Part shown: piece by piece, positions 13,982 through 24,991 of the stretch
Layout: the number at the start of each line of letters is the position of its first letter
Numbering within the stretch: position 1 is the first letter of the stretch
Assembly: GCA_016839765.1 (NCBI GenBank)
Contig: JAEOTP010000052.1
Coordinates: 1 to 24,991, forward strand
Reading direction: 5' to 3'
DNA: 24,991 nucleotides
Source of the DNA: Promethearchaeota archaeon
Lineage (GTDB): Archaea > Asgardarchaeota > Lokiarchaeia > Sigyniarchaeales > SOKP01
Position numbers and translations under genes: made by a program
The notes under the pieces: model-generated
Databases searched by the model: none
Told to the model about the DNA's origin: nothing
The model's input: the letters and a program-made list of their open reading frames with translations, nothing else

Positions 13982-14851
13982 TTATTCTAAAGTTTCCCTA
14001 ATTTTTTTCACAATCGATTTAAACGCCTTAGCACTTTCAGTATCTGGATTTTTTAAAACAAATGGTAACCCTTGGTCTCCTTGTTGACTAATTTCAGTTT
14101 CAAAAGGTATCTTTCCTAAAAGAGTAATCCCAAAATCTATAGAAGCTTTTTCAGCTCCCCCTGGGGGATAGAGATCAATATAATTATTACAATGAGGACA
14201 ACTAAAACCAGACATGTTCTCAATAATTCCAAGAACTTTTCTCTGCATTGTTTGTGCCATCGCTATTGTTTTTCTTGCATCCATGAGGGCAACCTCTTGA
14301 GGCGTGGATACAACAATTATATTTTCATCAGGTATCAATTGTAAAATATCTAAAGTCTCATCGGATGTACCAGGTGGTAAATCACAAATCAAATAATCAA
14401 GTTCACCCCATACAGCATCACCAAGAAACTGACGTACTGCTCCCATTTTCATTGGACCTCTCCAAATAACAGGAGTATCACTGTTTTGGGTTAAAAATGC
14501 CATACTCATTACTTTTATATTTAGTGGGCCATTTACAGGATAGAACCTTTTGGCCTCAGGATCAACCCGTGGCCTGATTTCAGGGTTAATTCCAAGCATC
14601 TTATTTACATTAGGTCCAGTAATATCCACATCTAATAATCCTACTCTCAATCCTATACTTGCTAAACTCATAGCAAGATTTACTGCCACAGTTGTCTTAC
14701 CGACACCACCCTTTCCCGAAATAATCACTATTTTATGCTTGATTTTTTCCATATTATTTCTTATATTTTCCATCCGCTCATCTAAAATTTCTTGCTTGGA
14801 CTCTTGGATAGTTTCTTTCAAATTGATATCAGGAATTTCGTTTTCTCCCAT
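13982..14851 (-). CDS. mrp: Mrp/Nbp35/ApbC Fe-S cluster carrier ATPase
   Basis: SGKGGVGKTT, DVDITGP, PVIWRGPMK, DLPPGTSD, STPQEVA and ENMSGFSCPHC. There is no N-terminal Cys cluster. Confidence 0.95.
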   Translation of the reverse strand: MGENEIPDINLKETIQESKQEILDERMENIRNNMEKIKHKIVIISGKGGVGKTTVAVNLAMSLASIGLRVGLLDVDITGPNVNKMLGINPEIRPRVDPEAKRFYPVNGPLNIKVMSMAFLTQNSDTPVIWRGPMKMGAVRQFLGDAVWGELDYLICDLPPGTSDETLDILQLIPDENIIVVSTPQEVALMDARKTIAMAQTMQRKVLGIIENMSGFSCPHCNNYIDLYPPGGAEKASIDFGITLLGKIPFETEISQQGDQGLPFVLKNPDTESAKAFKSIVKKIRETLE

Positions 14852-17088: not shown

Positions 17089-17448
17089 ATGAATAGAATA
17101 ATAGCGATTCCTTCCAATGGACCTGATATCACAAATTATATTTCTGAGCATTTTGGTCATTGTGAATATTTCGTTGGCATTGAAATCGATAATTTTGGTA
17201 GTTTTAAAGAAGTCTTTTCTTTACAAAATCATGGACATTCAGGATGTATGGAGCCAGTTATTAATATGGTAAAAAGAAATGTCAAAGATATGATTGTTGG
17301 TGGTATAGGTGGTAGACCTTATATGGGATTTATTCAATATAATATAAGACTCCATAAAGGAATTAATGGGACTTTGAAAGAAAATATTGAAAATTTAATA
17401 CAAGGAAAATTAAAACCTTTAACAGGACCAATGTGTAGAGGTCATTAA
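17089..17448 (+). CDS. NifB/NifX (COG1433) metal-cluster binding protein
   Basis: IAIPS...ISEHFGHCEYF, HGHSGC, IVGGIGGRP and C-terminal MCRGH. Confidence 0.9.
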   Translation: MNRIIAIPSNGPDITNYISEHFGHCEYFVGIEIDNFGSFKEVFSLQNHGHSGCMEPVINMVKRNVKDMIVGGIGGRPYMGFIQYNIRLHKGINGTLKENIENLIQGKLKPLTGPMCRGH

Positions 17449-17489
17449 TATAATTATAGTCTAAATTTAAATTTTGAGGTGATAAATAT

Positions 17490-17897
17490 ATGAAAATCGC
17501 AATAAGTACTGAATCTAATCAAGTTAGTGCCCATTTTGGGAGAGCTCCAACATTTACATTTATTACTATTGAGAATGATAAATTAGTAAAGAGAGAGGAA
17601 TTTTCTAATCCCGGACATACTGTTGGGAGCATTCCTGAATTTGTGAACAAACATGGAGCAGAGTATATGATTGCTGGAGGAATGGGACATAGAGCTATGG
17701 CTTTTTTCGAACAATATGGAATCAACGTTATAGTTGGAGTCCAAGGAACAATAGATAATGTAATTGAAAGGATTTTAGATGGTCAAATTAAAACTATGGG
17801 TGGTGAGAGCCTCTGTGCTCCCGGCGGAGGAAAAGGCTATGGTGTTGAAAAGATTCACACCGAAGCTGATAACAACCATGAACATCATCATCATTAA
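17490..17897 (+). CDS. NifB/NifX (COG1433) protein with His-rich tail
   Basis: MKIAIST...VSAHFGRAPTF, NPGH, IAGGMG and tail SLCAPGGG...NHEHHHH. GAGGTGA SD. Confidence 0.9.
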   Translation: MKIAISTESNQVSAHFGRAPTFTFITIENDKLVKREEFSNPGHTVGSIPEFVNKHGAEYMIAGGMGHRAMAFFEQYGINVIVGVQGTIDNVIERILDGQIKTMGGESLCAPGGGKGYGVEKIHTEADNNHEHHHH

Positions 17898-17965
17898 ATC
17901 TGAATTTTTAGTATAAAATTATTTCAAATAAAAGTTAATTAAAAAAAATGAGGTTTGTATAAAGA

Positions 17966-18427
17966 ATGGTTATAATTGCTGTACCTTCAAATGGAAATGG
18001 TGGATTGAATGAGCAAATGAATCCCCGATTTGGGCGATGTCCTAGTTTTACTTTCGTAACAGTTGAGAATAATGAAATTAAAGAAGTAAAAGCAGTACCT
18101 AATCATGCAGCAGATGCTATGGGAGGTGCTGGTATTCAAGCAGCTCAGATTGTGGGTAATAATAGCGCTAATGAAGTAATTGTTGGTTCTTTAGGTCCCA
18201 ATGCAGCTCAATCACTGAGTTCTTTGAAGTTAAAGATATATCAAGCCCCAAATCAACCAATTTCAGTAAAAGAGGTTATAAATTTATATCTAGAGCATAA
18301 ATTACAATTGATTACTTCTGCAAATGTTTCATCTCACTATGGAATGGGTAGAGGTGGAGGTATGGGCGGTGGTCGTGGTATGGGTGGTGGTCGTGGTATG
18401 GGACGTCAAAATAGAAGTCCATTTTAG
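17966..18427 (+). CDS. NifB/NifX (COG1433) protein, IssA-like, with Gly/Met/Arg tail
   Basis: IAVPS...PRFGRCPSF, GGAGIQAAQ, GPNA and tail GMGRGGGMGGGRGMGGGRGMGR. Confidence 0.9.
   Translation: MVIIAVPSNGNGGLNEQMNPRFGRCPSFTFVTVENNEIKEVKAVPNHAADAMGGAGIQAAQIVGNNSANEVIVGSLGPNAAQSLSSLKLKIYQAPNQPISVKEVINLYLEHKLQLITSANVSSHYGMGRGGGMGGGRGMGGGRGMGRQNRSPF
18341..18406 (+). repeat. 18-nt coding tandem repeat (GMGGGR units)
   Basis: ggtatgggYggtggtcgt occurs twice (18359-18394), with degenerate flanking copies. Confidence 0.7.
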
Positions 18428-18463
18428 ATAATATTAGTTACAGTTTAAATAATTTGGATCATC

Positions 18464-19375
18464 ATGGCAAAAATCATTTGTATTACTGGTGGGAAAGGAG
18501 GTACTGGAAAGACATTAATAGCTGTAAATTTGGCAACATTATTCAAAAATCATGGATTTAATGTATTATTAGTTGATGGAGATGTTGAAAACCCTAATAC
18601 ATATCTATTAATGAATGGAAAGCTTGAGAATTCTAGCGAAGTATCTTTTTTTGAACCTAAAATTGATGAACATAAATGTACCAAATGCGGGTTATGCGCA
18701 GAAAATTGTATATCTCACGCTCTACTGTATATTAAAGATGCTATTCCAATTCCCATATTGAATGTTTGCTCTGGATGTAAATTATGCTATAAAATCTGCC
18801 CAACAGAGGCCATAATAGCGGATTCAAGAGTAATCGGTTTGATTTATAGTACGAAAGTAAATAATATCGATTTGCTAATCGGTGAATTAAAACCTTCAGA
18901 AGCTAGATCGGCTGTTATCGTGAAAGCTTTAATGGAGAAAATAGATATACTTTTAAATGATAAACATGAAAAGTATGATGTTATCATTTTTGATACAGCT
19001 CCAGGAGCACATTGTGATGTTGAAGAGTTGATTCAAAGAGCTGATTATGTAATACCAGTTACGGAACCAACGAGATTTGGGAGATTAGATTTATTAAGAA
19101 TAATTGAATTAATTGATCTTCTAAACAAAGAATACAGAGTTATTGTAAATAGATCATCTCTATTGGGTTTTAGAGATCAATTTTTAAATGAACTTAATGA
19201 TAACGATATTCAAGTATTAGGTGATATTCCATTAGATGAAGATATAGTGAAATCATACTGCATTGGAGTTCCACTAATGGATAATCATAGTCGTTTCGAT
19301 ACACAGGGAAAAGGATATAAGTCTTTTCAAATAATTTATGAAAATTTAGCTAAATGGAGCGGCATAAAAACATGA
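18464..19375 (+). CDS. MinD-superfamily P-loop ATPase with inserted 2x[4Fe-4S] ferredoxin (COG1149)
   Basis: GGKGGTGKT, DGDVENPN, CTKCGLCAENC, CSGCKLCYKICP, DTAPGAHC and TEPT. Confidence 0.92.
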   Translation: MAKIICITGGKGGTGKTLIAVNLATLFKNHGFNVLLVDGDVENPNTYLLMNGKLENSSEVSFFEPKIDEHKCTKCGLCAENCISHALLYIKDAIPIPILNVCSGCKLCYKICPTEAIIADSRVIGLIYSTKVNNIDLLIGELKPSEARSAVIVKALMEKIDILLNDKHEKYDVIIFDTAPGAHCDVEELIQRADYVIPVTEPTRFGRLDLLRIIELIDLLNKEYRVIVNRSSLLGFRDQFLNELNDNDIQVLGDIPLDEDIVKSYCIGVPLMDNHSRFDTQGKGYKSFQIIYENLAKWSGIKT

Positions 19376-20298
19376 AAAGAAAGATTGTTGCAGTTATTTC
19401 AGGAAAAGGAGGTGTTGGAAAGACATCATTAACCGCATCTTTAAGCACTCTTGGTAGTAATGATTCTAATATTAATCCTATAGTGCTTGATTGTGATGTT
19501 GATGCTCCAAATTTAGCATTGATTTTAACTCCGAAACGTAAGGAACAAATTCATTCGGAAGATGTTTTCGCAACATTAAAAGCAAATTTAATAGAAGAAA
19601 GATGCATCCAATGTAAAGAGTGTATTGATAATCATTTTTGTGAATTTAATGCATTAAGATGGTTAGAAGATAATCAAATACCGGAAATAGATTATTTAGC
19701 ATGTGAAGGATGCGGTGCATGTAAAGTATTATGTCCTGAACATGCTTTTGAAATTAAAAGTGTTAAAAGTGGTGAGATAATATCTTATGAAACAATATTC
19801 CGATTCCCTTTAATTTATGGCAAAACTAGGTTAGGAAGTACCACTTCTGGAAAATTAGTAGCTGACGTAAAACAATTTGCCCAAAATTTAAGGGAATTTC
19901 AAGCATCAAATATAATTTTAATTGATGGACCTCCTGGAATTGGATGTCCCGTAATATCTGCTATTTCAGGAGTAGATTATGTTATTACTATTACAGAACC
20001 CACTCCTTCAGCTTTACATGATTTAATAAGAACAATAGAATTAGTAGAACAATTTAATATTGATTTTGGAATAGTAATAAATAAAGCAGACTTAGAAAGC
20101 CCCTTTCAAGAAAAATTTAAGCACCTCATTGAAGAAACTGGTTATAATATCCTAGGAAAAATTAAATTTGATTTATCTATACCCGAAGCAATGTCATATG
20201 CAAAACCTGTTGTTAATTATGCCCCAAATTCCTCTGCTAGTATAAGCATTATGGAAATTTACGATAGACTTAAAAATATATTATGGAATCATCAGTAA
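19372..20298 (+). CDS. MinD-superfamily P-loop ATPase with inserted ferredoxin (COG1149), second paralog
   Basis: SGKGGVGKT, DCDVDAPN, CIQCKEC, CEGCGACKVLCP, DGPPGIGCP and TEPT. Start set at the ATGA overlap (19372) rather than 19354. Confidence 0.92.
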   Translation: MKRKIVAVISGKGGVGKTSLTASLSTLGSNDSNINPIVLDCDVDAPNLALILTPKRKEQIHSEDVFATLKANLIEERCIQCKECIDNHFCEFNALRWLEDNQIPEIDYLACEGCGACKVLCPEHAFEIKSVKSGEIISYETIFRFPLIYGKTRLGSTTSGKLVADVKQFAQNLREFQASNIILIDGPPGIGCPVISAISGVDYVITITEPTPSALHDLIRTIELVEQFNIDFGIVINKADLESPFQEKFKHLIEETGYNILGKIKFDLSIPEAMSYAKPVVNYAPNSSASISIMEIYDRLKNILWNHQ

Positions 20299-20458
20299 AT
20301 TTATTTACCTTTTCTATTTTTTATAATAAGACTTTATTTCTTAAAATTTATAATCAATAATCTAAAGAAATTAATAAAGTAGGGAATATTTATACTCACG
20401 AGAGAGATTTAATAAATTCTACTTAAATAGGTGAAATATCATCCCTGTTCAAAATTTC

Positions 20459-20923
20459 ATGGAATTATACAAATATTTGCCAAAAACAAATTGTAAACTA
20501 TGCGGAAAGACTTGTATGGCTTTTGCTTTAGATCTTCTACAAGGCAAGGTAAAAGCTGATGATTGCCCTCCACTTTTAGAACCAAAGTATAAAAAACAGT
20601 ATGAAACCTTAAAAGAATTGCTTGGTTCTGAAGAAGGTGTAGAAAAAGAATTAAGAATAAATGTTGATACTGATCTCTGTGATGGATGTGGAATTTGTGT
20701 AACTATTTGTCCCGTAAATGCAAGATATTGTCCCCCTTCACTAAGTGGAAAAGCTCCCGACTATCCCCCCGAAAAACATCAATTATTTCAAGTTAAAGGT
20801 GGAAAATGTGAATTACTTGAACTTAAATATTGTCGAAGAATTGAAGCAGAGGGTAGAGAAAGAGAATGCCGAGTATGTGAAACGTATTGTCCTCGTGAGG
20901 CAGTAAAAATAGAATATGTATGA
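20459..20923 (+). CDS. fwdG: Formylmethanofuran dehydrogenase subunit G-like ferredoxin with N-terminal Fe-S domain
   Basis: YKYLPKTNCKLCGKTCMAFA...CPPL domain, plus CDGCGICVTICPVNA...SGKAP and CRVCETYCP. The true start may be ATC 20441. Confidence 0.75.
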   Translation: MELYKYLPKTNCKLCGKTCMAFALDLLQGKVKADDCPPLLEPKYKKQYETLKELLGSEEGVEKELRINVDTDLCDGCGICVTICPVNARYCPPSLSGKAPDYPPEKHQLFQVKGGKCELLELKYCRRIEAEGRERECRVCETYCPREAVKIEYV

Positions 20924-20959
20924 TTTGTGCTGATATTAATATACTTTTAGTGATTATTT

Positions 20960-22267
20960 ATGAAAAGATCCGTCTGTTCTGGTTGTTCTTTGTTATGTGA
21001 TGATATCATGGTCAAAAGTGATGGCATTTACATTGATGAGGTATTTGGTGCTTGCCTTAAAGGAAAAGAAAAGTTTGACCAGGTTACCTCTCAAAATAGG
21101 ATTTTAAGTCCTTTAATACGCAAGGATGATACCCTTCAAAAAGCATCTTGGGATGAAGCTTTACAAAGAACGGTTGACCTTATAAAAAAATCAAAAAAAC
21201 CCTTAATATATGGACTTTCTAATTCAAGTTGCGAAGCTCAATTAAAAGGAATTGAGTTAGCAAAATTAATTAATGGCTTTATTGATTCTAATGCTTCAAT
21301 ATGTCAAGGAAAAGTATTAGATAATGCTGTTAATTCGGGAATTACTCTTACAACAATTACAGAAATCATAAATAAAGCGGATTTAATTTTACTATGGGGT
21401 TCAAATGCCGCTGAATCAATCCCCCGACTCTTAAATAAAGTACTTTTTTCTAGGGGTAAATTTCGGATGACAGGACGAGAAATTAAAACTCTTATAATAA
21501 TCGATCCTGTTAAAACTGCATCTTTTAATACTATGGGAGTAAGAGATGTTGCATTAAGGATAACACCAGGAAAAGATATAGAATTAATTAAAGTGTTGAA
21601 AGAAGAATGTTGTGCCGCAGATAGTATTCCTTCTGAAGGAGTTGCTGGTCTTGATAAAGATGATATGAAAAGATTATTGCAACATCTAAGCGGAGCTGAA
21701 TATGGTGTGATTTTTGTAGGGCAAGGTTTATTAACACCCCAGAAAAACTCCAATTTAATTAATGAATTACTAGAGTTAGTACAAATGATTAATATAAAAC
21801 AAGAGAGAGGAAGAATAACTCTTGCTATGATGGGCGGACATTTCAATATGAATGGATTTGACCATGTAGCTTTATCTATGTATGGAAAAAGGGGAAATTT
21901 ACATTTTAAAGATAATCAGATTTTAGAAACAGATGAAAATATTATTTCAAAAATTGAAAATGAAGATTTTGATTGTTCTATATTTATTGGAACTGATCCT
22001 ATTTCACATTTTCCTATGAGTTTAAGCTCGAAACTAGCTAAAAAACCAATTATTTTAATAGATAATCGTAATTCTGCTACATTACAGCTAGCAAGCATAG
22101 TATTGCCTACAACTATAACTGGAATTGAATGTAGTGGTTTAGCCTATAGATTAGATCATATCCCAATTGAATTAAAGAAAATTATAAATCCTCCAAGTAA
22201 GATTCCTACAGATGAGGAGATTCTAAACCAAATTATTCAAAAACTTAAGAGTGATGGAGGTAATTAA
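20960..22267 (+). CDS. fwdB: Formylmethanofuran dehydrogenase subunit B-like (divergent)
   Basis: CSGCSLLCDD...ACLKG Fe-S motif, PLIYG, DSNASIC, ADLILLWGSN, GHFN, DPISHFP and GLAYRLD. Confidence 0.88.
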   Translation: MKRSVCSGCSLLCDDIMVKSDGIYIDEVFGACLKGKEKFDQVTSQNRILSPLIRKDDTLQKASWDEALQRTVDLIKKSKKPLIYGLSNSSCEAQLKGIELAKLINGFIDSNASICQGKVLDNAVNSGITLTTITEIINKADLILLWGSNAAESIPRLLNKVLFSRGKFRMTGREIKTLIIIDPVKTASFNTMGVRDVALRITPGKDIELIKVLKEECCAADSIPSEGVAGLDKDDMKRLLQHLSGAEYGVIFVGQGLLTPQKNSNLINELLELVQMINIKQERGRITLAMMGGHFNMNGFDHVALSMYGKRGNLHFKDNQILETDENIISKIENEDFDCSIFIGTDPISHFPMSLSSKLAKKPIILIDNRNSATLQLASIVLPTTITGIECSGLAYRLDHIPIELKKIINPPSKIPTDEEILNQIIQKLKSDGGN

Positions 22268-22643
22268 AACGGATTTCATTCTTAATACTGTAAGGCGTAT
22301 GGAAAATGATCAATCAAAAGAATTTTCTTTCGGCGATAAAAAATCCTTAGTAGAAAAATTAGCTATAGCTTTTATTAATCCTAAAGACTTCGATAAATTA
22401 AATCTAAGTAGCAAGCCAAATTTAAAAATTTCAAGCAATTTTGGAATAATAATTGTTAAAGGAATAGCGGATGAAGATGTACCTGAAGGAACTGTTCTTA
22501 TGCCAATATCTATCTGGTCAAATCAAATAACGGGAGTAGAAAATTCAGAGCTTAGATACAAAAACATGAGGGTGGATGTCGATATTACTGAAGAAAAAAT
22601 TAATGATCTTAATTCACTCATTAACAAAATAAAGGAGGCATAA
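22251..22643 (+). CDS. fwdD: Formylmethanofuran dehydrogenase subunit D-like (divergent)
   Basis: FILNTVR, AFINPKDFDKL, ISSNFG, VPEGTVLMP..IWSN and YK, typical of the molybdopterin dinucleotide-binding fold. Start uncertain (GTG 22251, ATG 22254 or ACG 22269). Confidence 0.82.
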   Translation: MMEVIKTDFILNTVRRMENDQSKEFSFGDKKSLVEKLAIAFINPKDFDKLNLSSKPNLKISSNFGIIIVKGIADEDVPEGTVLMPISIWSNQITGVENSELRYKNMRVDVDITEEKINDLNSLINKIKEA

Positions 22644-22647
22644 TTAA

Positions 22648-24312
22648 ATGAGTAAATTAATTGTTAAAAACGGAATTGTGTTTGATCCCATTAATAAAAT
22701 TGAAGGCGAAATTAAGGATATTCTTATTGAAAACGGTAAAATTGTAGAAAGGTTCTCGAATCAAAGCGATATTAAAGAAATAAATGCTAAAAATAAAACA
22801 GTTATTCCTTCAGCTATTGATATTCATTCTCATATAGCATCTCAACAAACCAATTGGTTACGATTACTTGGTAGTAAACATAAATCTTTTCAAGAATATT
22901 GGAATAACCTAAGTTTAGAGTATATTGCCAAAGCATATATATCAAATGGTTATACCTTTATTCTCGAGGCTAATGTATATCCCTCCTTATCAAAACAAAC
23001 AATGTTCAATTTCACACAGCTACCGGTGTTAGATAAGGCTATGTTATTGAATGTTAGTAATATCTGGGCTTTAGAATTAGAATACCAGCGAGAAATGGTG
23101 AATGAAGCTTCAACTTTTCTTTCAGATTTGTTGTTGAAAACAAAGGGATTTGGTTTCAAAGTCTATAATCCTTTTGAAGCTGAAAATTGGAATTTTCAAA
23201 AATTAAGAAATGATCTAACAAATAAAGGTAGATTGTTTAACTTTTCTCCTATCGATGTTTATGAAAAAATGACAAAATATAATGAGGCATTAGGCTTACC
23301 TCATTCAGTTCACGTCCATGTAGAAGGTTATGAACAAAGTTATGCGGAAGAAAATTTAAAGCTGATCTTACATAAAATAAAATCTCTAAATTTAATATCA
23401 AGTAAAAGTAATTTGAATATAAACCGTTCACAAATATTTCATCTTGCTCATGCATCTTCATATAATATTGACGGTGATAATTCAGGTTTAATCAAATTTT
23501 ATAATGACAATCAAGAATTTGATCTAGATCTTGGATTCATGGGATTTGATCCTATTAATCCTTTAATTACAAGCGATAGAAGATTAATCAACTCCTTAAT
23601 TGCAGCTGAAAGTCCTTTTAAAGTAATTACTACTGCAGTTGAGTCAGAAGGAGACACATTTTCTACATTAAGGATATTTAATAAACAAAATGAAACAGAT
23701 TGTATTTTATGGGCAAACTCTCTAGATTTAGCGCTTAATATTAAAAATATGTGGCAAATGCAATTATCAATTAATTTCCCTAATTATTCTCATATTAACA
23801 AAATACCTGAAATCGCAACTTTGCTCTTAAGTTCAAATGCTAGAAAGAAGTTTTTAGAAAATTTGAATAAAGAATTTGTAAGAAATAATAAACTAATCAA
23901 TAACAATAAAGAACTTACCTTTTATGATTTCATAATATTAACTCGTTCAAGTCCAGCTAAGTCATTGGGTATAGGTACAGTTAAAGGAAATTTAGGAAAA
24001 AATGCAGATGGAGATTTAAATATACTAAATATTAATATCGATGAAATAGACACTTCAAAAGACATTGAAAAGATAAAGAATTCTTTAAAAAGCATTGAAT
24101 ATGTAATTAAAGAGGGTAAAATCATTAAGAAGGATGACTCAATTGATATCACTCCAAACGGGAAGATATTTTGGAGTTCAGGCACATTTGAATATGAAGA
24201 TAAAAAGTTAATAATGAATCGAAAGAAAGATTTTTACCAGAAATATTACTCGATTTTTTATGATTCTCTTAACACTTCAATAGGTAATGAATTTTTAAGG
24301 GAATTTAATTAA
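22648..24312 (+). CDS. fwdA: Formylmethanofuran dehydrogenase subunit A-like amidohydrolase (divergent)
   Basis: IVKNGIVFDPIN, IDIHSHIA, GYT, GFKVYNP, LGLPHSVHVH, TRSSPAKSLG, KGNLG and YVIKEG. Confidence 0.9.
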   Translation: MSKLIVKNGIVFDPINKIEGEIKDILIENGKIVERFSNQSDIKEINAKNKTVIPSAIDIHSHIASQQTNWLRLLGSKHKSFQEYWNNLSLEYIAKAYISNGYTFILEANVYPSLSKQTMFNFTQLPVLDKAMLLNVSNIWALELEYQREMVNEASTFLSDLLLKTKGFGFKVYNPFEAENWNFQKLRNDLTNKGRLFNFSPIDVYEKMTKYNEALGLPHSVHVHVEGYEQSYAEENLKLILHKIKSLNLISSKSNLNINRSQIFHLAHASSYNIDGDNSGLIKFYNDNQEFDLDLGFMGFDPINPLITSDRRLINSLIAAESPFKVITTAVESEGDTFSTLRIFNKQNETDCILWANSLDLALNIKNMWQMQLSINFPNYSHINKIPEIATLLLSSNARKKFLENLNKEFVRNNKLINNNKELTFYDFIILTRSSPAKSLGIGTVKGNLGKNADGDLNILNINIDEIDTSKDIEKIKNSLKSIEYVIKEGKIIKKDDSIDITPNGKIFWSSGTFEYEDKKLIMNRKKDFYQKYYSIFYDSLNTSIGNEFLREFN

Positions 24313-24446: not shown

Positions 24447-24991
24447 ATGAATAAAAAGAATCCAGAAAAAGTTTGTCCTTCTTGTAATCAGGTTAATTCA
24501 ATCTCAAATCAATTTTGTATTGAATGTGGATTTAAATTCACTGATGTAGAATCTGGAAAATTTGAAATAATCGAACATTACAAAAGATCTCTAATCGGTA
24601 GTATTGTTTGTATAGCCATTTTTGTTGCATTTATGGTATTAGTAACAATTGCCGTTCCTTTTGAATATGGTGCATATGGTCTTATTGCAATTCCAATTAT
24701 TTGGCCATTAACGATTGGTTTCCTATTTTGGGCAAGACACTATTTACGAGGGTTGTCTAAACTTAGAAGATTTACAATTACTGATAAATATATCGAGATT
24801 AATGTACCTCATAAACCTCATTTTCGAATTAATTGGTCTGATTTTAATTCCATTGAAATAACAAAGAGAGAGTCAATGACAACATTACCAACTCCAGACG
24901 GGCTAATATTAGGTCCTCGATTTGTCTATTTCAAGTTGATTTTTAAAGGATCAAATTATGAGCAAAGCTATGAATTTGAATCAGGTAAAGA
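24447..24991 (+). CDS. Zinc-ribbon, 2-TM membrane protein (3' truncated by window edge)
   Basis: Not in ORF track: MNKKNPEKVCPSCNQVNSISNQFCIECGFKF, two hydrophobic segments, then RRFTITDKYIEINVPHKPHFRINWSDFNSIEI. The frame is open to the window end. Confidence 0.82.
   Translation, partial: MNKKNPEKVCPSCNQVNSISNQFCIECGFKFTDVESGKFEIIEHYKRSLIGSIVCIAIFVAFMVLVTIAVPFEYGAYGLIAIPIIWPLTIGFLFWARHYLRGLSKLRRFTITDKYIEINVPHKPHFRINWSDFNSIEITKRESMTTLPTPDGLILGPRFVYFKLIFKGSNYEQSYEFESGK

Follow-up and report, generated by a model that had tools for sequence, protein, structure and literature searches.

The window analyzed here is the whole 24,991-bp contig JAEOTP010000052.1 (C30) of a 3.3-Mb metagenome-assembled genome (MAG; 95.9% complete, ~30% G+C) of a Promethearchaeota archaeon. 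Near its 3' end, on the plus strand at 20441-24312, lies a four-gene operon that resembles the genes for formylmethanofuran dehydrogenase (Fwd); a Rag/Gtr1-type GTPase and a WD40-TIR protein are encoded on the same contig, and the host is an Asgard archaeon of the Lokiarchaeia type. We call the product of the first gene FeS-Fer, and the FwdB-, FwdD- and FwdA-like subunits B', D' and A', respectively. The four open reading frames (ORFs) contain neither frameshifts nor internal stop codons, and their coordinates and spacing bear out an earlier sequence-only reading of this DNA, which had described four full-length and closely spaced ORFs.

Gene Content of the Operon

Family domains were assigned with Pfam and NCBIfam profiles, and residues were mapped by alignment to solved Fwd chains (5T5I, 7BKB, 8RJA and 9SW6 among the known systems). 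FeS-Fer (20441-20923, with its first ATG at 20459) matches PF04060 (44 bits) and Fer4. B' (20960-22267) corresponds to the Mo/W-bis-pterin subunit FwdB, in an Arg-less version (TIGR03129, 360.5 bits; PF00384). D' (22251-22643) resembles the pterin-dinucleotide-binding cap FwdD (PF01568, 34.7 bits; NF042908, 54.6 bits), and A' (22648-24312) is a FwdA-like protein with an amidohydrolase fold (TIGR03121, 299.2 bits; PF07969). B' scores above its NCBIfam cutoff (327.8 bits), and both A' and D' fall below theirs (392.75 and 175 bits). B' and D' overlap by 17 nt and A' begins 4 nt past D', such that the subunits appear to be translationally coupled. The gene order FeS-Fer, B', D', A' is invariant in 15 related genome loci that span 58-99% identity (hereafter the 15 loci).

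The next ORF on the 3' side (24438-) codes for a Zn-ribbon/membrane protein; position 24991 is the last of the contig. Neither fwdC nor fwdF was found downstream of the operon within the window, and fwdC is also absent from the 15 loci, examined up to 10 kb downstream. The absence of both genes from the operon, as claimed by the sequence-only reading, thus stands; missing fwdC, however, carries less weight than it had implied, given that the sharing of subunits between Fwd isoenzymes is known (PMC3087415).

FeS-Fer consists of an N-terminal PF04060 [4Fe-4S] domain similar to the cluster domain at the N-terminus of the corrinoid Fe-S protein, followed by a 2x[4Fe-4S] ferredoxin that resembles the ferredoxin repeats of FwdF/G. 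The earlier label "fwdG" had to be abandoned, as this architecture belongs to a different family from the 80-residue 2x[4Fe-4S] FwdG of the solved complexes. Twelve cysteines are invariant among 12 diverse homologues, enough for three [4Fe-4S] clusters. In the 15 loci, FeS-Fer is 78-99% identical and is always encoded directly 5' of B'. A look-alike with the same architecture occurs in methanogens according to the ESM Atlas, where it is automatically named "FwdG family"; a word-index search with FeS-Fer turned up proteins from Asgard archaea only.

Comparison of 16 loci argues against ATG 20459 as the start codon of FeS-Fer. The six codons on its 5' side encode a conserved I-P-V-x-N-F motif in which all third positions vary, a stop codon lies directly upstream of the extended start in 6 of the 16 loci, and in 15 of them a GGTG motif precedes an ATH codon (ATC, ATT or ATA) by 6-8 nt. 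As the sequence-only reading had proposed, translation probably starts at the non-canonical ATC 20441, six codons before the first ATG.

Active-Site Residues of B' and D'

B' aligns with FwdB from M. wolfeii (5T5I_B) with 253 bits. Two hallmarks of the Fwd/Fmd family are present: the N-terminal [4Fe-4S] motif (C6, C9, C13 and C32) and the Cys/Sec metal ligand (C115, codon 21302-21304, equivalent to Cys118 in 5T5I_B), all of which are invariant in the 15 orthologues. The catalytic His and the active-site Arg are missing. His119 is replaced by Q116 and Arg288 by G292 (codon 21833-21835), and the corresponding motifs SICQGK and GGH[FY]N are invariant across the 15 orthologues. A third residue near the redox site, Lys118, is also fixed in this clade. 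By comparison, the C-H...R signature is present in all 96 canonical-type FwdBs that we sampled, and no studied Fmd/Fwd enzyme deviates from the His/Arg pair (PMC11656701; the roles assigned here to the His/Arg pair, to the Asp and gate Lys of FwdA and to FwdC are taken from this study). An ESM Atlas search with B' returned generic FwdB clusters only. B' also contains a vicinal pair, C217-C218 (21608-21613), that is invariant in 15 of 15 orthologues, at a site where the canonical FwdB from the same genome has Leu-Arg.

D' is more distant from its counterpart (48.8 bits to 5T5I_D) and is the least conserved subunit of the operon (46-100% identity). The sequence NTVRRMEND occupies the position of the canonical (L)NTGRT..QG motif, with the Arg of TGR kept, and three residues are deleted before [YF]K. 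The sequence-only reading had recognized NTVRRMEND correctly. The missing TGMP motif that it had also counted as a change is an imprecise detail, since TGMP is absent from FwdD of M. wolfeii and from the canonical FwdD of the same genome as well.

The FwdA-like Subunit

Alignment of A' with four solved FwdA chains, including 5T5I_A and 7BKB_G, gave scores of 194-215 bits and revealed two deletions of ~12-20 residues. Five ligands of the binuclear metal site are present: His57 and His59 (M. wolfeii FwdA numbering) correspond to H60 and H62, Lys178 to K171, His231 to H224, and His271 to H268. The sixth ligand, Asp385 on strand 8, is replaced by N376 (codon 23773-23775), which leaves the ligand set of Fwd/Fmd, and of binuclear amidohydrolases in general, incomplete at this position. 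In addition, the gate residue Lys64 is replaced by Q67. All studied enzymes share the four His, the Asp and the carboxylysine without exception, and the Asp takes the proton from the amine of methanofuran (PMC11656701).

These replacements are fixed. Across 120 clusters of orthologues, the six ligand positions (H, H, K, H, H, N) are 100% invariant, compared to 13% of all columns, and Q67, E226 and F176-E177 are fixed in the same clusters. Together with the 15 B' orthologues, these alignments answer the fixation test that the sequence-only reading had called for: the replacement residues of both subunits are invariant across the clade. Its central observation, that catalytic positions are changed in both active sites and that Fe-S and metal ligands are largely kept, is confirmed by the structure-based alignments.

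An AlphaFold2 model of A' (pLDDT 91.3, pTM 0.93) superimposes on 8RJA_A, 5T5I_A and 7BKB_G with a TM score of 0.90, followed by FhcA with 0.86. Judged by this model, the fold of A' is intact and FwdA-like. Close homologues of A' form more than 120 clusters (58-100% identity), and all named members are from Asgard archaea; NCBI labels them "amidohydrolase family protein", JGI "formylmethanofuran dehydrogenase subunit A". With HMMER, the A' orthologues were traced among 1.84 billion representatives to a single full-length cluster at 50% identity, and the next matches share 33% identity or less.

Canonical fwd Genes, Distribution and Selection

The same genome also contains a canonical set of fwd genes. 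Contig C76 carries an operon for a polyferredoxin (fwdF/G), fwdD, fwdB, fwdC and fdhD, in which FwdB (609.5 bits) has the motifs CHG and MRGHYN and fwdC is the only copy in this genome. Canonical fwdA (760.8 bits) stands alone on contig C46. This search for further fwd copies, suggested by the sequence-only reading, identifies the operon at 20441-24312 as a paralog of canonical fwd.

Among 400 genomes of the phylum, orthologues with at least 53% identity occur exclusively in the GTDB family of the window, in 114 of its 135 genomes; other families contain canonical-level matches or none. Within this family, canonical FwdA was found in 110 and FwdC in 106 of the 135 genomes, and a second complete copy in none. 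Five near-complete genomes contain the paralog, Ftr and FwdC (four of them also canonical FwdB), and canonical FwdA was not found in them. The idea that A' replaces canonical FwdA is not supported by these numbers: FwdA is missing from 25 of 135 genomes and FwdC from 29, so that the absence of FwdA, being no more frequent, looks like ordinary MAG incompleteness. In one genus of the family (G145:C228, G147:C3 and G149:C1), canonical fwdC is located ~0.2-1.7 kb from the A' gene on the opposite strand, which shows that in this genus both systems are physically linked.

Pairwise dN/dS ratios (NG86) indicate purifying selection on all four genes. FeS-Fer is by far the most constrained (0.03-0.11), followed by B' (0.10-0.31), A' (0.12-0.26) and D' (0.21-0.38); the neighboring mrp gene gave 0.04-0.10. 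The ratios stay well within the dN/dS < 1 limit set by the sequence-only reading and exclude simple decay. The notion that the operon consists of decaying remnants of a duplicated fwd operon could draw on the catalytic residues lost from three subunits and on the scores of A' and D' below the family cutoffs, but is effectively refuted by intact reading frames in the window, by dN/dS ratios of 0.03-0.38, by a gene order conserved in 15 loci, by the presence of the paralog in 114 of 135 genomes and by the invariance of the replacement residues.

A Wider Branch of Arg-less FwdB Proteins

FwdB proteins that lack the active-site Arg are not confined to the family of the window. They also occur in Kariarchaeaceae, Freyarchaeia, Jordarchaeia, a Methanolobus-type contig and Methanomethylicia. 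Eighteen Arg-less FwdBs separate from 20 canonical ones with a support of 100/100 in an unrooted tree, in which the Methanolobus and Methanomethylicia sequences form long branches. In a tree of 75 FwdA-family proteins, the A' orthologues fall within a group of 16 sequences with a support of 100. This group also contains proteins from Frey-/Sigynarchaeota (Asn in place of Asp, other ligands kept) and Jordarchaeia, a JGI protein with the canonical Asp, of a type that recurs in Kariarchaeaceae loci, and proteins from several Promethearchaeota clades without any of the metal ligands of A'. Both trees, of the kind that the sequence-only reading had called for, place the operon on a separate, well supported branch.

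Two traits mark this branch, which we refer to as the FwdB2 type. First, the Cys ligand is kept and the Arg is replaced by a small or hydrophobic residue: Gly in the window (G292), Ala in the Methanolobus-type, Frey and Jord proteins (the latter two with the signature CH...Ala) and Ile in Kariarchaeaceae. Second, a gene for a PF04060 plus 2x[4Fe-4S] protein is located directly 5' of the FwdB gene in the window, in the 15 loci, in Kariarchaeaceae, on the Methanolobus-type contig and on contig L034; on the Methanomethylicia contig the two genes are 1.7 kb apart. FeS-Fer accompanies the Arg-less FwdB branch and is its presumed electron-entry subunit.

The surroundings of these genes vary. In Kariarchaeaceae, a FeS-Fer homologue (41% identical) precedes a FwdB with CHG and Ile at the Arg position, and a D-A gene pair, an HdrA-MvhD fusion and a polyferredoxin are encoded nearby (L022, L025). 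The Methanomethylicia-type contig L033 combines FeS-Fer and a divergent FwdB with an HdrA-MvhD fusion and a polyferredoxin as well. The occurrence of a ~787-residue fusion of HdrA and MvhD/FlpD beside the FeS-Fer/FwdB2 pair in two distant lineages, together with the polyferredoxin, suggests coupling to flavin-based electron bifurcation. These neighbors fit a low-potential redox role.

By scanning metagenomes with the FeS-Fer alignment, we found a contig (L032) on which FeS-Fer (46% identical to that of the window) belongs to a Methanolobus cluster. It encodes, in this order, two hybrid-cluster proteins, a FtrB-like protein, FeS-Fer, FwdB (SFCQGP, PMAGHYN) and FwdD, and neither A nor C. The order fwdG2B2D2 has been published for Methanosarcina, and these genes are constitutively transcribed in M. 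acetivorans (PMC2838876). Taxon and gene order point to orthology between the Methanolobus-type contig and this cluster. The tandem hybrid-cluster proteins (hydroxylamine reductase family) and the FtrB-like protein are encoded on the same strand directly 5' of FeS-Fer (L032:1472-5924), which may hint, for this one locus, at a link to redox stress or N-oxides. On another metagenomic contig (L039, 63% G+C), genes for a fused PF04060-ferredoxin, a FwdB-like protein without Cys ligand and a 470-residue amidohydrolase stand in a row, in what looks like another derivative of the Fwd/Fhc type.

We found no literature description of the substituted residues or of the Arg-less branch. A survey of the MopB family counted 83 Asgard FwdB homologues without subdividing them (PMC10100899). 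By sequence comparison, the operon in the window is a variant within an annotated paralog branch and not a one-off.

Possible Function of the Complex

On balance, we lean slightly toward the view that the four genes encode one Fwd-derived complex that operates as a redox enzyme on a different substrate and is not a formylmethanofuran dehydrogenase. As part of this explanation, which we consider the best available, the operon would descend from formylmethanofuran dehydrogenase by an old duplication and represent the Arg-less FwdB2 branch. Low-potential electrons would enter through the three [4Fe-4S] clusters of FeS-Fer, proceed to the N-terminal [4Fe-4S] cluster of B' and reach a Cys115-ligated W/Mo-bis-pterin center that is capped by D'. 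The second sphere of this center (Gln116, Lys118, Gly292) would lack the His/Arg pair for the activation of CO2 or formate, and with this pair gone from B', a different small substrate would be reduced or oxidized at the redox site. A' may bind metal and a ligand, or may simply serve as a scaffold for B'D'; with Asn376 and Gln67 in place, it is not expected to catalyze the Asp-assisted condensation of formate with an amine. We prefer a functioning complex with altered chemistry because the redox wiring is kept (unlike in FhcB), because the replacements are invariant, and because the genes appear to be coupled and are subject to purifying selection.

Several observations weigh against this view. 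The clade-fixed residues Lys118 of B' and Glu226 and Phe176-Glu177 of A' lie near the active sites and could compensate for the lost residues. In sister Asgard clades, A' contains no metal ligand at all, which implies that A' may be a scaffold only. The changes from DPR to DPV in B' and from TGR to TVR in D' affect positions that presumably contact the pterin. The genes around the operon do not point to a substrate. Finally, the C-terminal domain of MoaA, MoaC and MoeA were not found in the 95.9%-complete genome of the window, and in its genus MoeA is missing from 30 of 42 and MoaC from 31 of 41 genomes, the genes being located in one cluster. This absence lowers our confidence in any mechanism that depends on a pterin.

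The first of these objections leads to the possibility that the operon still encodes an isoenzyme of formylmethanofuran dehydrogenase, in which Lys118 and Glu226/Glu177 take over the roles of the missing residues and FwdC is borrowed from the canonical enzyme. We regard this as quite improbable. The candidate residues are at least 98-99% fixed, B' exceeds the NCBIfam cutoff for FwdB, and the five near-complete genomes with the paralog, Ftr and FwdC in which canonical FwdA was not found would suit such an isoenzyme. However, the changes are concerted, extending over both active sites, the gate Lys and D', and the branch is also present in Methanomethylicia, which are methyl-reducing methanogens not known to have the methyl branch. 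Canonical FwdA is also absent no more often than FwdC. The sharing of subunits does have a precedent in Methanothermobacter, whose W and Mo enzymes have FwdA in common (PMC3087415), but the His/Arg pair and the Asp occur without exception in the Fmd/Fwd enzymes studied so far (PMC11656701), and the His/Arg pair also in all canonical FwdBs that we sampled.

The cofactor problem deserves a closer look. In the genus of the window, 10-12 of 41 genomes encode MoaC and MoeA together on a single contig, and more than 12 genomes with a completeness of 97-100% lack them; in the family, MoaC is present in 66 of 135 genomes. The paralog is retained in 24 of the 30 genomes of the genus without genes for molybdenum cofactor (Moco) biosynthesis and in 9 of the 12 with these genes. 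Canonical FwdB with fdhD is likewise retained despite the missing moa/moe genes. Since both enzymes are kept, the question of pterin supply concerns both alike, and the paralog is not singled out. This situation invites the alternative of a non-catalytic or cofactor-poor complex, i.e., an electron-transfer, storage, scaffold or regulatory module, or a pseudo-enzyme maintained by selection. Missing Moco genes in the own genome and most of the genus, full-length A' proteins without metal ligands in sister clades and the exceptional constraint on FeS-Fer are all compatible with such a module, and in FhcB a Fwd subunit has likewise been retained as a scaffold (PMC10100899). Nevertheless, we consider it unlikely: the invariance of Cys115 and of all six ligand positions of A' would be unexpected for structural remnants, and with an intact canonical FwdB and its own fdhD still in the genome, the absence of moa/moe genes does not show absence of the cofactor.

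If the complex is indeed an enzyme with altered chemistry, a broader proposal can be made, although only tentatively and with clearly less confidence. The FwdB2-type module could define a hitherto unrecognized family of W/Mo-pterin oxidoreductases that uses low-potential electrons derived from bifurcation to reduce a small molecule other than CO2 and that ranges from Methanosarcinaceae, Methanomethylicia and Archaeoglobales-like organisms to Asgard archaea. The Lokiarchaeia form would be a two-site enzyme that recruited a FwdA with a re-tooled binuclear metal site for new chemistry. The substrate might be a heterocumulene similar to CO2 or, in connection with redox stress, an N- or S-oxide; the only hint to the latter comes from the two hybrid-cluster proteins and the FtrB-like gene on the upstream side within the Methanolobus-type locus.

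These considerations matter for the interpretation of Asgard genomes. In metabolic reconstructions, Fwd genes mark the archaeal Wood-Ljungdahl pathway, and common pipelines annotate this operon as FwdB/FwdA, although it should not be taken as evidence of carbon fixation. As it lacks the residues for the reaction with CO2, gene counts can overstate the capacity for CO2 fixation. The sequence-only reading had predicted such miscounting by routine annotation, and B' does indeed pass the NCBIfam cutoff and A' is named FwdA by JGI. The branch also illustrates the graded remodeling of a two-site channeling enzyme, with the Arg lost first, then His and Asp, and then all ligands of the hydrolase site. 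Because the Arg-less branch extends to Methanosarcinaceae and the genus Methanosarcina is genetically tractable, the function of these proteins is directly testable. In addition, the retention of both Fwd-type enzymes without recognizable molybdopterin biosynthesis prompts the question whether syntrophic Asgard archaea salvage the cofactor.

Genomic Neighborhood

The intergenic region on the 5' side of the operon (20299-20440, plus strand), inspected by direct reading, contains a T-run past the preceding gene, an AT-rich TATA-like stretch and the GGTG ribosome-binding motif, and the operon probably has its own promoter. Further upstream, the minus strand (13982-14851) codes for an Mrp/NBP35-type Fe-S cluster carrier with a MrpORP-like ATPase domain (PF10609, 313 bits; NF041136, 329.8 bits over model positions 1-250). 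This divergent gene is found 5' of the operon in 13 of the 15 loci, and in the other two (L006, L008) the available stretch ends short of that point. The carrier is a possible maturation factor. Genes for a DUF89 phosphatase and an MFS transporter are also often upstream in these loci; assignment of the transporter to a formate/oxalate type was rejected, because it gave weak GPH-like matches only.

Between mrp and the operon lies an accessory module (17089-20298, plus strand) for which Pfam and NCBIfam profiles indicate three NifX/NifB-type proteins (PF02579) and two ferredoxin-containing MinD/ParA ATPases. This module, which resembles the ORP complex, occupies the same place in 6 of the 15 loci and in the metagenomic locus L037. 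It is missing there from 7 others and is therefore optional. Just 3' of A', six loci (L007, L009, L014, L017, L018 and L019) contain a convergent set of three genes, the first of which is partially present in L011. Two of the products (~500 and ~330 residues) match no Pfam family, and the third (~547 residues) has a C-terminal GNAT domain. The window, with the end of its contig at this point, does not include the set.

Inserts in Canonical fwd Genes

The canonical fwdA gene of the same genome (G000:C46:2859-4607, minus strand) is interrupted by a 30-nt insert with an in-frame stop (TGA) just after the GDGPW codons. The insert occurs at the same site in five genomes from two genera and is absent from a 99%-related genome (L027-L030 vs L026). 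Excision of exactly 30 nt restores the sequence GPWE[FY]ALHH. The RNA is predicted to fold into a bulge-helix-bulge (BHB) motif in which two 3-nt bulges hold both junctions and flank a 4-bp helix. This helix reads CATG:CATG or, through compensatory change, CTTG:CAAG, and the hairpin of the intron shows compensatory changes as well. Comparison of six genomes and folding favor a removable 30-nt element over the idea that canonical fwdA is a pseudogene. The insert probably represents a BHB intron within a Lokiarchaeia protein-coding gene, for which crenarchaeal cbf5 provides a precedent (PMC2738675). In canonical fwdB of a related genome (L052; G260:C46:5000-6500), the Fe-S motif is split between CPFCG and TLCDD by a 30-nt hairpin insert with an in-frame TAA, which may be another mini-intron of this kind, although its motif is less regular.

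Comparison with Known Systems

The homology of B', D' and A' to FwdB, FwdD and FwdA extends over the entire proteins, which share with Fwd/Fmd the [4Fe-4S] motif and the Cys ligand of FwdB and five of the six binuclear ligands of FwdA. In contrast to Fwd/Fmd, which contains the His/Arg pair, the Asp, the gate Lys and TGR, the window encodes Gln/Gly, Asn, Gln and TVR at these positions. In Fwd/Fmd, the beta-helix of FwdC bridges A and BD and stabilizes the cavity between the two active sites (PMC11656701), whereas the operon contains neither fwdC nor fwdF. Electrons enter Fwd/Fmd by way of FwdG or FwdF; the corresponding protein in the window is a fusion of PF04060 and ferredoxin domains.

The Fhc complex of methylotrophs (6S6Y) is also derived from Fwd and has also given up part of the ancestral chemistry, but represents the mirror image. 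In FhcB, which serves as a scaffold, the pterin, the Cys and the Fe-S cluster are gone, and the catalytic site of FhcA is complete. In the window, ligands are retained on the redox side, and the catalytic Asp is gone from the hydrolase side. Since the cluster also contains no gene for FhcD/Ftr, the complex does not belong to the Fhc type, which agrees with the sequence-only reading of a derivative different from Fhc.

The other Arg-less paralogs of Asgard archaea fall on the same side of the FwdB split, and their FwdA-like proteins belong to the same fully supported group as A'. They differ in that the His beside the Cys is kept, in contrast to Gln in B', and they are only 30-35% identical to the proteins of the window cluster. 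In Kariarchaeaceae, A retains the catalytic Asp and the genes are split into D-A and FeSFer-B pairs around the HdrA-MvhD fusion and the polyferredoxin; fwdC was not found in the two loci examined. With the fwdG2B2D2 type, as represented by the Methanolobus-type contig, the operon shares the order Fe-S protein, B, D; this B protein combines the Cys-Gln signature with Ala in place of the Arg, whereas B' of the window family, on a long branch, has Gly at this position. The cluster in methanogens contains no A-like gene, and the Asgard cluster adds a co-evolving A'.

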